Positions 28,231 to 44,969 are shown, counted from the first letter of the stretch. The stretch: 64,000 bases of DNA from Dehalococcoidia bacterium (GCA_035650575.1 DASRHM010000114.1:2265-66264), one strand, 5' to 3'. The notes: generated from the letters alone by a model not told the origin. Made by a program: numbers and translations.

Positions 28231-28369
28231 GCGGGCGGCCAGCGCCGGCGCTGCGATGGCGCCGGCCCTCCGGAGCGGGTGCGCGGGGGCGCCGTGCGTC
28301 GTACAGGCCTGGATGGAGATGGCTGTGGAGCGGGAGACGAGACTCGAACTCGCGACACTCTGCTTGGGA
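28231..28369. repeat. Left 139-bp direct repeat of the island (attL-like); 28325..28369 is a 45-nt copy of the 3' part (anticodon loop to CCA) of tRNA-Gly on the minus strand
   Basis: Ungapped alignment with 44831..44969 (offset exactly 16600 nt), 129/139 identical. The 5' half of the tRNA is absent here, so this is a displaced tRNA 3' fragment plus its 94-nt downstream flank. Confidence 0.85.
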
Positions 28370-28594
28370 ACAAGCTAGGGCTTCTGCAAGCTGCTCCAGA
28401 TTCGAAGTTGGCCCCGAAACCGATGCAAGCTGCACCTAATTGGGCGCACATCTCGCGGCCGGGTTCGGCACGCTGCCGAACGTCATGCTATCGCAGAAAA
28501 CGCTCAGCGGATCGCATCGTTTCTAGCGCAATCACCGCCTGACTTAGGCGCCGCTAACACGCGCGGCCCGACACATCAATGTGCATCGCAGCAG

Positions 28595-29503
28595 TCAGGG
28601 CCGAACCGCGACGGGGGTCGCCTCGACGGCGAGCGCGTTAAACCCGTCCCGTGACCAGAACACGCGCCCGGCACCGAGCCGCTGCTCCAGCGCGTCGTAA
28701 AGACGCTCCGCTGCGCTGATGTCCTGCCAGTCTCCCCAGCCGAGTTCTGCAAAACGCGCTGGGAGCGGGCGGTGACGCGTGCGCTTGCCGTTGGAGCCAT
28801 CGCCGAAGAACGTATCGACGATCACGCGATCTGCGGCGGATTCCAGTGCATCGGCGAAACGCTCGAGCGAGTGAGGAAGCGTCGGACTGACGGCGGCCTG
28901 CACATGGATCCCCAGCGCACGAGCCTGGCGCATGGTCGTGAGCCGACGTTCGACGCTTGGGCATGTAGGTGTGAGCGCTCGCCGCACGGCATCATCATCT
29001 GTCTCAACGGTCATCGAGAGCCAGGCGAATGGCATCTCGGCGAGAAGGTCGAAGTCCTCCTCGACGAAGGGAGAGCGGGTCTGAACCACGAGCACACCGA
29101 TCGGGTGCTCGTGGAACACCTCAAGGATAGAGCGCGTGATCCGGAGCTTCGCCTCCGCTGGCTGATAGGGATCCGTCGCGGAGCTCATGAAGACGCGCAC
29201 GGACTTTGGGTCGCTGAGGACTCCAAGGTCTCGGCGAAGCGCCTCGGCGGCGTTCGCCTTGGCGCGCAGCCACTTCCCCCAGGGCTTGCCAGCGTAGAGG
29301 CCGATCGGCGACTCCGCGACGTAGCAGTAGACGCCGCAGCCGCCGTCGCCGAACGCGCATCCCATGTACGGGTTCAGGGTATGCGTGAACGCGTACAGGA
29401 ACCCGCTTGCGGGCGTGAGCACGCGGCTCGTGCGAACCAGTTCGGGCTGGAGCAACGCTGGACCTCGACAATGACCCATAGCACGGATGTTCTTCTTGGT
29501 CAA
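28595..29503 (-). CDS. Putative radical-SAM-related Fe-S protein of the SplB/COG1533 (DNA-photolyase-like) family
   Basis: Cys cluster MGCAFGDGGCGVYCYV near the N-terminus, followed by a TIM-barrel-like series (VRVFMSSATDPYQP, LSMTVETDD, VQAAVSPTLP) resembling SPL-family proteins. Cys spacing C-x6-C-x3-C is atypical. Confidence 0.45.
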   Translation of the reverse strand: MTKKNIRAMGHCRGPALLQPELVRTSRVLTPASGFLYAFTHTLNPYMGCAFGDGGCGVYCYVAESPIGLYAGKPWGKWLRAKANAAEALRRDLGVLSDPKSVRVFMSSATDPYQPAEAKLRITRSILEVFHEHPIGVLVVQTRSPFVEEDFDLLAEMPFAWLSMTVETDDDAVRRALTPTCPSVERRLTTMRQARALGIHVQAAVSPTLPHSLERFADALESAADRVIVDTFFGDGSNGKRTRHRPLPARFAELGWGDWQDISAAERLYDALEQRLGAGRVFWSRDGFNALAVEATPVAVRP

Positions 29504-41249: not shown

Positions 41250-44115
41250 CAGCGGCCACCTCGCCCGGGGACAAGCACGTAACACCCCACGATGTCCGGC
41301 GGAAGGTGCGGCTCCACCTTCAGCGCCACGTCGTTCACGACACTTCGTAGCCGGTCGTGCGCGTCCGTCAGCGCCTTCACGCGATCCTCCACGATAGGTG
41401 CGTACGAGTCGTCCGTGAGCATGCCGAGAGCCCATTCGACCTGGCGGCTGCGCTCGGCCTTCTCCATGTTCGCGGTGGGTTGCGCTTCACCGAGGAGACG
41501 AAGCGCTTCATCCTGGTACGGCGTAAGCCAGTGGAGCGCCGAATCGCGGCGCACGCATGCAGCCAGCACTACTTCCTCGGCGAACTGCTGCCGTGCCTCT
41601 TCCTCGAGTAGATATCGCAGTCGTAGCAACATGATGGCAGTCCGCTCGCGGACGGCATCGGTATAGATCGCGCTGCAGCGTGGAAAGCGGGGGTCGTCGC
41701 CAGCCAGGGCTCGCGAGAGGACCGCGTCGGCAACGGTCGCCACAACGGGATGATTGCGCGAGAGCAGCGTGACGCCCTCGGAAGGCACGCCATCGAAGAC
41801 GCAGCGCAACGGCGCCGTAAACGATGGTGCGCGCTCGACAATGTTCGCCAGGAGATCGCCGGGCTGCACGTCGAAGGCGCCCTTCGGCGCCTCGCACAAC
41901 TCGCCGCCGAAGCGCTGCAGCGCCTCGGCGAGGAACCGCCGTACGTCGTCGGGACTGCCGAGCACCGGCTCCAGCTCCTCGAGCTCACGGCTTACCTCGT
42001 CGGGGTTGATCTGGTGCTGCGCGAACCGCGTGCGGCTCCGCTGCTCACGTTCGGCTGCGGCATCCCACGCCTGGTGAAACTCGCTGACCTTCGGGTCATC
42101 GAGGGCAAGCTGGAGCTGCTGCGCACGGCCCTGGCCTCGCAGGAGGATGCTGTCGACGACGGCCTGCACGACTTGATCGGACTCCACCGGAACGGGCACA
42201 GAGATGCCAAGTTGCCGGCGGATCGTCTTCGCCTTGCGGATCAAGACATCGAGTACCACGAGGTCAACGGGATTGTCCGAGCCGTAGAGGAGGACGGTCT
42301 TGATCGTATCTCGCGCCTGGCCGTACCGGTCGACGCGGCCCTCGCGCTGCTCGAGCCGATTCGGGTTCCAGGGCAGGTCGTAGTGCACGACCGCGTCGAA
42401 ATGCTCCTGCAGATTGATGCCCTCGCTCAGGCAGTCGGTGGCGACAAGTACCCGCCGCGGCGATGTCACGAGATCCGCGACCTTCGCCTCGCGCACCTCG
42501 CTGTCACCGTCGCCACCCGTGACCGAGACCACGCGGAGATCGGTATGCTTCCCTTTCAGCGCCTTCTCCAGCTCTTTCGCGACGTACTCAGCGGTGGCGA
42601 TGAACCGGCAGTACACGATCGGCCGGAACCCTTCGCCGAGCAGCTCGTCGACGGCGCGTATGGCTTCGCCGAGCTTCGCGTCGAGCCTGGGTCCTGCAAG
42701 CGACCGCGCCTGCCTCAAGAAACTGTCGAGCTTGCGCCGTTCCGACGTCGTGAGTTCGGCGTCCGGATCGTCCACGGGCGCCGCAGGTACATAGTCTGCT
42801 GGCTGGTCCTCTTCAGACGAGTCGAGAATCAGGTCTGCGAACAATGCGTCCGGGTCGTCCTCAGAGGCCACGTGCCCAGCGATGTCGTGCCCCGGGCGGC
42901 GGTTCTCGAGCACGGCCTCTGCCGCCGCGGGGCTAGAGAGGACGCACCGCAGGATCGCGATGGCAGCCCAGTACCGTACCCGCTGCTGCTGCCGCCGCGC
43001 ATGTCCATCCACCGCGACACTATCGCGGCAGTAACGCAGCACATCCTCAAACAGCCGAAGGTACTCCGGTGCCATATTGTACGTGCGTTCGGTCGCGTCA
43101 CGTACCGGGAACGGCGTCTTTTCGCCGAGCCATTTCTCGAGGTCCGAGCGGCGGCGCTGGACGAAGTGCCGCGCGAGCTGCCTAACTGGCAACTCCTTGT
43201 CTTCGGGCGCGTCAAACGAGGAGTCAAGGAGTCCGAGCAACGAGCGAAAGCTTTCTTCGACCCCACTATGCGGCGTGGCCGTCGCCAGGATCAGATGTCT
43301 TGTGGGAATGGCTGCGAGGTCGCGTAGCAGTTCGTACCGCTGATGTTGCGCCCGCCCGGTACCACCGCGCGGCCGGGCGGCCGTGTGGGCTTCATCCACG
43401 ATGAGCAAGTCGGGCGCATTGTCAACGAAGCTGTGGCGGTATCGGTCAGACTTGACGAAGTCGATGCTGGCCACAAGATGGCGGTAGTGGGCGAAGACGT
43501 TCAGGTCGCCGCGCGGTAGATCACGTTCCAGCCGACCCATCCGGGCCGGCTGGACGATCACCGCATCAATCCCAAATTTCTCTCGCAGCTCCTGCTCCCA
43601 TTGCGCGCAAGGTGTGGGGCGCAGAGCACGCCGATACGATGGACGATGCCGCGATCCAGCAGCTCGCGCGCCACCATGGCCGCCTCGACTGTCTTCCCGA
43701 CACCGACATCGTCGGCGATGAGCATGCGCACCGGGTCGAGGCGCAGTCCCATGAGCAGGGGCACGAGCTGATACGGTCGCGGCCGAACGTATAGGTGGCC
43801 AAACGATCGGAACGGACCGGCGCCACTGCGAAGCGATAGCCGAAGGGCGTCGCGCAGAAGCAATGCGCCATCGAAGTTACCCGGGAGATCGGCATCCGGT
43901 GGTTCGTATCGCGCCGGGCGGACATCCGCCGCTTCAAACGGCAAGAAGATTCCCGTGTGTCCGTCGATTGAGCCGTCGATCGGCCGCACGCGCACGACGT
44001 CGTCATCACGGCTGACGACGACCCAGTCGCGCCCGCGCGTCCGAACAAGAGCTCCTGGTTTGAAGTCCAGCGCCATCACCCCCTTGTCGAGATAATACGG
44101 AGCGGACGGCGACAA
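41249..44115 (-). pseudogene. SNF2-family (DrmD-like) helicase, interrupted by a 1-nt frameshift near 43590
   Basis: N-terminal ORF (44115..43558) carries motif I LIADDVGVGKTVEAAMVAREL and ends ...VLCAPHLAR. The downstream frame (opening about 43590) continues QWEQELREKFGIDAVIVQPARMG...LLIVDEAHTA (DEAH) ...QREGRVDRYGQ (motif VI). A missing C in a cgcc run splits the gene. Confidence 0.75.
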
Positions 44116-44830
44116 GTCTCGTCGCGGCCCAGACTCGATCTCGGTCAGGCCGAGTCATCCGCCTACCGGGCGCCAGGCTGAACTCTGGTGCGTGGGCGCC
44201 GACCGAGTCGCTAAAGGGAAGAGGCTGCGTCGATGACCTTACGCATGTCTGAGCCAAACCGTCGGCAGGCCCGGCGACGAGGTGTCCGTCTATGGATATG
44301 ACTTTCCTCACACGTTGTGGTCGTCATCTATAGCCTAGGGCAGCTGACCGGACGCGACGGGAATATCGCCCCAGCGACGACCGATGCTGCAGGCAACTTC
44401 GTGATCGCTGGCGGCGTGCCGCGCGGGTTGTGCCCCGCCGCGTATATCATTCAGGCCGTGGCCATCGATTCCGGCTGGATGGCATCGGCTTCCTTCACAG
44501 TCACTCCATAACCACGTGGTCACGTCGCGCGGCATGGCTCCGTCCATCTCACGACCGCGCGTACCATTCCGGCTCAACCTCATAGCGCGGCCCGCCGGCC
44601 GATACCGGCAGCCGCTCTAACCTCCGGCGCGAGACGACCGAGTCGTCGCGGAAGGCGATCGTGCGGTCAGGCTGCGCGGCGTCGGGCAGCTCGGCCGACG
44701 GCGACGGGTCCACGGTACGCGCGGGTGTACGGGAATGAGCTAATTGCAGATGCCGGTCGAGAAGTTGTCGAGGTCGCAGACCCCGGTGGGCGGGCGGCGG
44801 CATCGGCGAAGACATAGGCATGGCGCGCGG

Positions 44831-44969
44831 CGGGCGGCCAGCATCGGCGCTGCGATGGCGCCGGCCCTCCGGAGCGCGTGCGCGGCGGCGCCGGGCGTGG
44901 TACAGGCGTGGGTGGAGGTGGCTGTGGAGCGGGAGACGAGACTCGAACTCGCGACCCTCTGCTTGGGAA
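44831..44969. repeat. Right 139-bp direct repeat of the island (attR-like), covering tRNA-Gly nt 32-76 plus the 94 nt downstream of the tRNA
   Basis: Pairs ungapped with 28231..28369 (10 mismatches). Confidence 0.85.

Follow-up and report, generated by a model that had tools for sequence, protein, structure and literature searches.

ARMADA defense systems, as described by Bell et al. (2025, bioRxiv, PMC12458937), bring together a YprA helicase of the Druantia-like kind that bears a Vsr-type nuclease at its C-terminus, a helicase resembling BrxHII, and a methylase resembling PglX, and a 'reversed' order of their genes is known from archaea and cyanobacteria (PMC12458937). In the model of Bell et al., mobile genetic elements (MGEs) integrate, lose their mobility, and are then kept as defense islands (PMC12458937). 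Among the tDNA islands of Islander (Hudson, Lau & Williams 2015, PMC4383910; Williams 2002), anticodon-centered sites are the commonest class (2083 of 3919 islands; PMC4383910), and the canonical crossover sublocations include the anticodon loop and the T-loop/acceptor junction (PMC4383910). In this study, we analyzed a window of 64,000 nucleotides (nt) from a Dehalococcoidia bacterium (GCA_035650575.1 DASRHM010000114.1:2265-66264), in which a defense island at a tRNA-Gly(CCC) gene, spanning positions 28,231 to 44,969, is bounded by an imperfect direct repeat. This locus is very probably a stranded, immobilized, and decaying remnant of an integrative element that carried an ARMADA-type system into the tRNA-Gly(CCC) site.

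The intact tRNA-Gly(CCC) gene, 76 nt with an encoded CCA, lies at 44925..45000 on the minus strand (ARAGORN; Rfam tRNA score of 70.2 bits). Its positions 1-31 are host DNA, and positions 32-76 fall within the right, tRNA-side copy of the repeat (44831..44969, minus strand), which continues into a 94-nt spacer (spacer'). The left copy (28231..28369, minus strand) consists of a displaced 45-nt tRNA fragment with the same positions 32-76 (28325-28369, minus strand) and the 94-nt native spacer, and is contiguous with an intact host gene of the short-chain dehydrogenase/reductase (SDR) family (27419..28204, minus strand; Pfam adh_short; GC content at third codon positions, GC3, of 0.97), the product of which matches NCBI HZP58426.1, encoded in a Dehalococcoidia metagenome-assembled genome (MAG), with 100% identity. 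An ungapped alignment of 28231-28370 with 44830/44831-44969 gave 130 of 140 identical positions (92.9%) and 10 mismatches. Identity starts at tRNA position 32, which is the first base of the anticodon loop, and reaches 94 nt beyond the tRNA 3' end, with a single variable-loop change, G45T, in the left tRNA fragment. A core of 28 nt taken from the 3' half of the tRNA occurred exactly twice in the 64 kb and in 0 of 100 shuffles, and no third att copy was found in the window. The search of the gaps for Rfam-type structured RNA turned up only the tRNA, and nothing in the left repeat copy scored as a tRNA in the Rfam scan. The sequence-only reading of this DNA had described the intact tRNA, the ungapped repeat with 10 mismatches in 139 nt, its 45-nt tRNA part, and its 94-nt extension, and had called for a tRNA search on both copies; all of these values were reproduced by the alignment, and ARAGORN and Rfam placed a tRNA at the right copy only. 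The left boundary is strongly supported, on these sequence features, as a classic att fossil, the mark of a past tyrosine-integrase event.

These features resemble those of the Islander tDNA islands, which share an intact tRNA gene, a displaced 3' fragment in the same orientation, an anticodon-loop crossover, and a foreign interior (PMC4383910; Williams 2002). However, Islander requires an integrase in the interval (PMC4383910), and the island described here has none. Furthermore, in contrast to islands of the Islander type, the duplicated block is an imperfect one of 139 nt (181 nt with the SDR fragment described below) that runs at least 94 nt past the tRNA and into a host gene. The active elements of Bell et al. 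likewise differ from this locus in having integrases and repeats of 16-20 nt (PMC12458937), compared with no integrase and a far longer repeat here.

The tRNA-side copy also contains a piece of the SDR coding sequence. By repeat search, tblastn, and alignment, we identified a fragment of ~41 nt (SDR'; 44789..44828, minus strand) that corresponds to SDR codons ~29-42 and matches 28081-28121 inside the SDR gene, with 29 of 31 identical positions in the core block (44789-44819 against 28081-28111). The translation of SDR' reads AYVFADAAAR, compared with AYVFADAGAR at codons 32-41 of the SDR gene (tblastn). This block is offset by 109 nt from the main repeat, and a deletion of ~108 nt removed the SDR start region. 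The tRNA-side copy thus runs in the order of tRNA positions 32-76, the 94-nt spacer', the ~108-nt deletion, and ~41 nt of SDR codons ~29-42, and the SDR' homology breaks off at codon 42, where the junction with element DNA lies. Since this copy holds a piece of SDR coding sequence, it is a stretch of host chromosomal DNA rather than a minimal att core, and would have arisen either by capture from a related genome or by duplication on the spot. This coding piece strengthens the earlier proposal that a diverged version of the host flank came in with the element.

A different occupant of the same site was found in a third strain, represented by a 9.7-kb contig (JGI 3300055099; hereafter L113). 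The SDR gene, 5' untranslated region, spacer, and tRNA fragment of L113 are 96-100% identical to the left junction of the window, with 95.7-97.8% identity between the left repeat copy and its L113 counterpart, 99% amino acid identity of the SDR protein, and ~97% nucleotide identity of the flank. Upstream of the junction, L113 carries an excisionase-like HTH_17 open reading frame (ORF), genes encoding ArdC, an aGPT-Pplase3/ADDT protein, and an AEP-PriCT-AAA_25 primase-helicase, a 77-amino-acid (aa) ORF, and a 318-aa ORF. These different genes at the same junction indicate that the content of the site is variable among related genomes. The empty site that the sequence-only reading had proposed to look for was not found, and the variability that it would have demonstrated is shown by the different occupant in L113. 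In a three-way alignment of the repeat (window left, window right, and L113), 4, 6, and 1 private changes were found, respectively, so that six of the 10 left/right mismatches are private to the tRNA-side copy. Compared with the inferred ancestral sequence, the spacer-containing right copy has 6 changes in 139 positions (4.3%), a divergence that is host-level and not element-level. This value points either to a related strain as the source of the right copy or to an event of about the same age as the split between the window and L113.

Two parts of the island are homologous to L113. A fossil of an L113-type element (44250..44775, minus strand) is made up of the 77-aa gene's tail, some intergenic DNA, and the C-terminal 65 codons of the gene encoding the 318-aa protein, and matches L113 with 81% identity over 484 nt (blastn) and 78% over the full segment. 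It includes a pseudogene ORF (44317-44511, plus strand) with 78% amino acid identity to residues 254-318 of the L113 318-aa protein (E 8e-31). The stretch 44116..44830, which the sequence-only reading had set aside as noncoding debris, is indeed debris but is not anonymous, with 44250-44775 recognizable by this homology as the fossil of a primase/ArdC-type element. The second part is the attR-proximal element end (28370..28498, minus strand; ~130 nt), which is 86% identical to L113. Overall, the window and L113 diverge by 2-4% in the host flank and by 14-22% in element-derived DNA. Host flanks at 96-100% identity beside element segments at 78-86% indicate independent members of one element family, each of which sits at this att site in one of two closely related hosts. 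The island would be a remnant of this L113-type (primase/ArdC) family from which the integrase side has been lost. The defense block of ~15.75 kb (28499-44249) stands where L113 has only ~0.8 kb, a position that is strongly supported, by comparison of the two loci, as a cargo slot near the attR end. Terminal repeats were sought at the ends of the defense block and none were found.

Within the L113-conserved element end, GCAGCTTGCA is present at 28385-28394 and 28424-28433 (minus strand), 39 nt apart and beside a T-loop-like CTTCGAATC motif, and these are its only two copies in the 64 kb. They may be arm sites for a recombinase or a recombination directionality factor, or an older fossil of a tRNA fragment. 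Nothing was returned from IMG/VR when it was scanned with the primase of L113, its 318-aa protein, a 29-mer conserved in the element end, or the island's YprA protein, and the L113 primase had only distant relatives (<30% identity) in phages and plasmids.

The integrase, excisionase, ArdC, and primase that an L113-like backbone would have between the tRNA and the 77-aa gene tail are all absent, and in their place spacer' and SDR' are fused to that tail. In agreement with the sequence-only reading, Pfam, PADLOC, and NCBIfam scans of the plausible ORFs and gaps of the island detected no integrase, excisionase, transposase, or conjugation gene. Integrase remnants were also sought in small ORFs of the gaps (each <=712 nt), with no match even at E<=5. 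One illegitimate join, linking SDR codon 42 to the element interior, and one homologous or site-specific exchange would together explain why the repeat is long and imperfect, why it includes an SDR fragment, and why the integrase is missing. The structure could have arisen by aberrant excision of the lambda dgal type in a related host, followed by Campbell-type re-insertion via the captured ~0.3 kb. Alternatively, homology-facilitated illegitimate recombination of linear donor DNA, or an in-situ unequal exchange after which the proximal copy was excised, might have been involved. By reasoning from the map, we infer that the three routes would give the same topology.

In lambda dgal/dbio and in homology-facilitated illegitimate recombination, a single illegitimate junction drops element genes and captures adjacent host DNA, and the captured homology can mediate integrase-free insertion, leaving a long imperfect duplication. 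This is the likeness to our locus, where, unlike in those systems, the mechanism is read from topology only and packaging, a helper, and a direction of transfer are without evidence. Along these lines, we tentatively consider that the island may have reached its host without an integrase of its own, having lost the integrase side, captured ~0.3 kb of flank (the tRNA 3' half, the spacer, and the SDR 5' end), and entered a related chromosome by RecA-type recombination; we regard this as possible but doubtful. If true, it would mean a homology-driven spread of defense islands in an uncultured lineage, and a recent sweep would then account for the very low diversity of the island as compared with the flanks.

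A conventional history would have the element inserted by its integrase with an attP that natively contained a long (~140-180 nt) host-like segment, the integrase and backbone being lost later by a separate in-situ deletion. The anticodon-loop left boundary is typical of tyrosine integrases, and deletion of integrases from old islands is generally known to be common (a model is given in PMC12458937). Nevertheless, we consider this history unlikely, since SDR' adjoins the tail of the 77-aa gene in a direct fusion, and in L113 this gene has primase, ArdC, and other backbone genes ahead of it. With this fusion, one join explains both capture and loss, whereas the long-attP history needs two events. 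Moreover, a fragment of host coding sequence has no role in an attP, and the captured segment diverged at the host level (4%) and not at the element level (14-22%). It is far less probable still that the region is native and vertically inherited, with a lower GC content due to gene function and a repeat left by an old local duplication unrelated to mobile DNA. Such a view could draw on the missing empty site, on the same content in the only near-identical strain, and on the non-island stretch at 8-11 kb (cytochrome oxidase genes), which also deviates in tetranucleotide use. It is contradicted by the L113 strain, which has different genes at the same junction beside a ~97% identical flank, and is opposed by the start of the repeat exactly at the anticodon loop and by the presence of a pseudogene fossil of the L113 element. 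It is also opposed by GC3, which is lowered across unrelated genes, being 0.66-0.78 in most island genes and 0.91-0.98 in flank genes. GC content is 0.60-0.70 inside the island and 0.70-0.745 in the flanks, and the tetranucleotide distance exceeds the flank mean by >3 standard deviations (SD) in several island windows. All three measures agree with the low-GC, foreign interior proposed by the sequence-only reading. The closest outside homologues of island proteins are 62-64% identical and none exceeds 64% outside this population, whereas outside homologues of flank proteins reach 87-93%.

As the window comes from a MAG and repeats are typical break and join points, a chimeric contig joining two populations at the repeat was also weighed. 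This assembly or binning artefact is the least probable of the explanations and scarcely credible, given an independent MEGAHIT contig of 92 kb (ENA ERZ27279688) that spans both repeat copies and both flanks colinearly. Aligned to window positions 25784-46611 (20.8 kb), it showed 13 substitutions and no gaps (99.94% identity), and the strain it represents has the same island, repeats, and frameshifts. In addition, the two repeat copies differ at 10 sites, and L113 independently confirms the left junction. The argument of the sequence-only reading that the copies are not an assembly duplication is thus upheld by a second assembly with the same structure.

Several observations weigh against the interpretation as a stranded remnant of an integrative element. 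The three repeat copies are nearly star-like in their private changes, a pattern compatible with either copy in the window being native and with each of the three routes. Neither an empty site nor a complete L113-type element with an integrase beside tRNA-Gly was recovered; therefore, the integrase of the family and the tRNA-side end of L113 are inferred and not seen. SDR relatives in GTDB genomes (<=87% identical) had no tRNA nearby and no synteny with the locus, relatives of the LOG protein in metagenomes (<=68% identical) had no adjacent tRNA-Gly, and thus the ancestral order of LOG, tRNA, spacer, and SDR is assumed and not observed. SDR proteins at 91-93% identity (L109, L110-112) were in contexts unrelated to the locus, the exact 34-nt tRNA/spacer junction pattern had no match in JGI metagenomes, and exact-protein look-ups with SDR, LOG, the methylase, CoA-transferase, and P0243 gave no match. 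The contrast in strain variation between the window and the ENA contig, with 2 single-nucleotide polymorphisms (SNPs) in the 16.7-kb island against 38 in a left-flank stretch of 12.6 kb, where they form five clusters, is drawn from two assemblies and from SNPs that are clustered. Finally, the frameshifted genes described below might still yield functional split proteins.

The defense cargo appears, by homology, to be an ARMADA-type system for methylation-linked helicase-nuclease defense. A YprA-family helicase of 1718 aa (30140..35296, minus strand) has DEAD, Helicase_C, and MZB (DUF1998) domains all fused in a single protein (Pfam) and carries a Vsr-type (PD-(D/E)xK) nuclease at its C-terminus, where the domain has a Vsr fold and the last 190 residues include a PDF...FIDG..H motif. 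The YprA proteins of ARMADA, in which an OB-CON-DUF1998 module is joined to the DEAD/Helicase_C core, have a BrxA-like insert after RecA1 as well as a beta-barrel zinc module and a MarR-like insert in RecA2 (PMC12458937); residues ~300-1000 of the island protein had no Pfam match. By profile scores and not by phylogeny, this protein is nearer DruE (PADLOC 1.5e-90) than DrmA (9.8e-16), and it looks like an intact ARMADA effector. A SNF2 helicase of the BrxHII/RapA type, the gene of which is frameshifted, and a PglX-like methylase are encoded in the same operon. At a homologous locus (L108), SNF2, methylase, and YprA genes form a tight, overlapping three-gene operon. The GajB-like helicase-RelE fusion of ARMADA Type II is absent downstream of YprA, where only a 636-nt gap and then a radical-SAM gene follow; therefore, the system is Type I-like with a 'reversed' gene order.

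Homologues of the SNF2 (DrmD-like), methylase (DrmMI-like), and YprA-family (DrmA/DruE-like) proteins are also found in class 1 DISARM and type III Druantia, the names of which take the PADLOC and NCBIfam matches of the island, all NCBIfam scores being far below the family cutoffs. Class 1 DISARM was rejected because DUF1998 is fused, with no separate DrmB, and no PLD/DrmC gene is in the island. Type III Druantia was also rejected, as there was no PADLOC match to DruH and the C-terminal nuclease is of the Vsr and not the PLD type. The ARMADA islands of Bell et al. (PMC12458937) have the same three-gene core and are also located at a tRNA gene and derived from MGEs. Unlike those cases, the locus described here has a Chloroflexota host, the order SNF2-methylase-YprA, an inserted toxin-antitoxin-like pair, and two frameshifted genes. 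The range of ARMADA-type systems extends to Dehalococcoidia.

All island genes are on the minus strand. The SNF2 helicase gene (BrxHII/RapA/DrmD-like; 41249..44076) is split into two ORFs (43558-44115 and 41249-43561), over which positions 1-159 and 177-972 of the PADLOC DpdE/DrmD/BrxHII profile are divided. Its profile matches were to BrxHII (PADLOC 1.3e-41), DrmD, and RapA, with an NCBIfam DrmD score of 244, below the cutoff of 610. It is followed by the gene for a PglX/DrmMI-like N6-adenine DNA methyltransferase of 1143 aa (37818..41249; Pfam Eco57I and N6_Mtase; gene call of L106), which matched DrmMI (PADLOC 7.8e-79) and PglX and has homologues with up to 63% identity. A separate ORF (37044..37693) corresponds to the C-terminal ~250 aa of longer methylases (1300-1426 aa); it aligns to residues 1173-1322 of P0025 and is 60% identical to a 223-aa ORF that is also separate at another locus (L107). 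The GC3 of this C-terminal ORF is 0.83 and that of the methylase 0.92, and the uneven GC3 of the island genes indicates that the island itself is a mosaic.

Two genes are inserted within the ARMADA operon, compared with L108, where methylase and YprA genes are adjacent without them. The first encodes an RmrA-like protein with HTH (Xre) and M78 (ImmA/IrrE) peptidase domains (35784..36995, minus strand; Pfam HTH_3 and Peptidase_M78) that matched PADLOC RmrA over nearly its full length (1.8e-19). The second encodes a DUF4411 (PIN-like) protein (35314..35784, minus strand; Pfam DUF4411 5.7e-39, full length), which is presumed to be the toxin partner of the HTH/M78 gene, and its start overlaps the HTH/M78 stop by 1 nt. 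The likeness to RosmerTA is on the antitoxin side only (RmrA), whereas the partner here, in the place that an RmrT toxin takes in RosmerTA, is DUF4411/PIN-like and has no PADLOC match. With the ARMADA-type system and this toxin-antitoxin-like pair, the interior consists mostly of defense genes, as proposed in the sequence-only reading. A radical-SAM protein of ~286 aa (28595..29455, minus strand; Pfam Radical_SAM; GC3 0.78) is distantly related to PA0069/Rv2578c (SplB-like), with NCBIfam matches far below cutoffs, and pVip was rejected for it, there being no PADLOC match. The 636-nt gap between the YprA and radical-SAM genes (29504-30139) showed no family matches and no similarity to any of the loci compared.

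Relative to intact homologues, the SNF2 gene has a frameshift at ~43600, a 1-nt deletion in ...CTTGCGCGC^AATGG..., and tblastn with the L108 SNF2 protein accordingly placed residues 1-164 in frame -3 and residues 155-953 in frame -2. The methylase C-terminal ORF is frameshifted at ~37282, where a 1-nt deletion changed CCC to CC and left the last ~85 codons out of frame (tblastn frames -2, then -1). Both frameshifts have the same indel state in the independent ENA assembly, and sequencing errors were rejected on the agreement of the two assemblies. Given the frameshifted SNF2 gene and methylase C-terminal ORF, the ARMADA system is probably inactive, and it is probably decaying. These shared frameshifts add genetic decay to the immobilized defense island that the sequence-only reading had suggested and that the analysis supports.

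This locus fits the model of Bell et al. and offers a well-resolved case, found in nature, of the route by which a mobile element inserts, becomes immobile, and is retained as a defense island, in an uncultured soil Chloroflexota lineage for which such events are rarely documented. It suggests that a single illegitimate junction can strand an element and leave a long imperfect repeat. Island finders that depend on an integrase would reject this island for the want of one. In addition, its cargo is already gathering frameshifts, which bears on the functional lifetime of stranded defense systems. Current concepts are unchanged by the locus, which is a clear but ordinary example of defense-island formation.

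Another ARMADA-like locus was found at 7173-16608 of L107, with AbiEi/AbiEii upstream and the methylase split into 1176-aa and 223-aa ORFs. Its YprA gene is cut to 375 aa by an rve-family insertion sequence (IS), and a serine recombinase and other IS genes are near. This truncation, together with the nearby recombinase and IS genes, indicates another decaying, MGE-associated copy. On L113, the gene encoding the aGPT-Pplase3/ADDT protein (2724-3626, minus strand) lies beside ArdC. The aGPT-Pplase3/ADDT family is linked to thymidine hypermodification of phage DNA, and the presence of ADDT and ArdC points to anti-restriction functions on that element.

The host is a high-GC member of Dehalococcoidia (Chloroflexota) from an uncultured soil lineage, and genes for cytochrome oxidase, ArgRS, a sigma factor, and CoA-transferases in the flanks identify the locus as chromosomal. 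For tRNA-Val (50943-51019) and tRNA-Met (56314-56388), no displaced 5' or 3' fragment was found in the window (30-mers, <=4 mismatches), which gives no sign of more tDNA islands there. SDR proteins with 87-93% identity sit in at least three unrelated neighborhoods on other Dehalococcoidia contigs (L109, L110-L112, and L001-L005), and local synteny around the SDR gene appears to be very poor in Dehalococcoidia. Differences of the window from the ENA contig and from a JGI contig (L082) occur in tight clusters, each with 2-10 SNPs in 10-400 nt and separated from the next by a long stretch of identity (17225-17325, 21366-21771, 24065-24134, 24785-25191, 27782-27980, and 35015-35024). This clustering suggests either short tracts of recombination or a switching between strain consensuses within the assemblies. 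Outside the island, a tetranucleotide deviation of >3 SD occurs only at 8001-11000 of the window; this region encodes cytochrome c oxidase subunits I and II, and its deviation is likely caused by membrane-protein composition and not by foreign origin.

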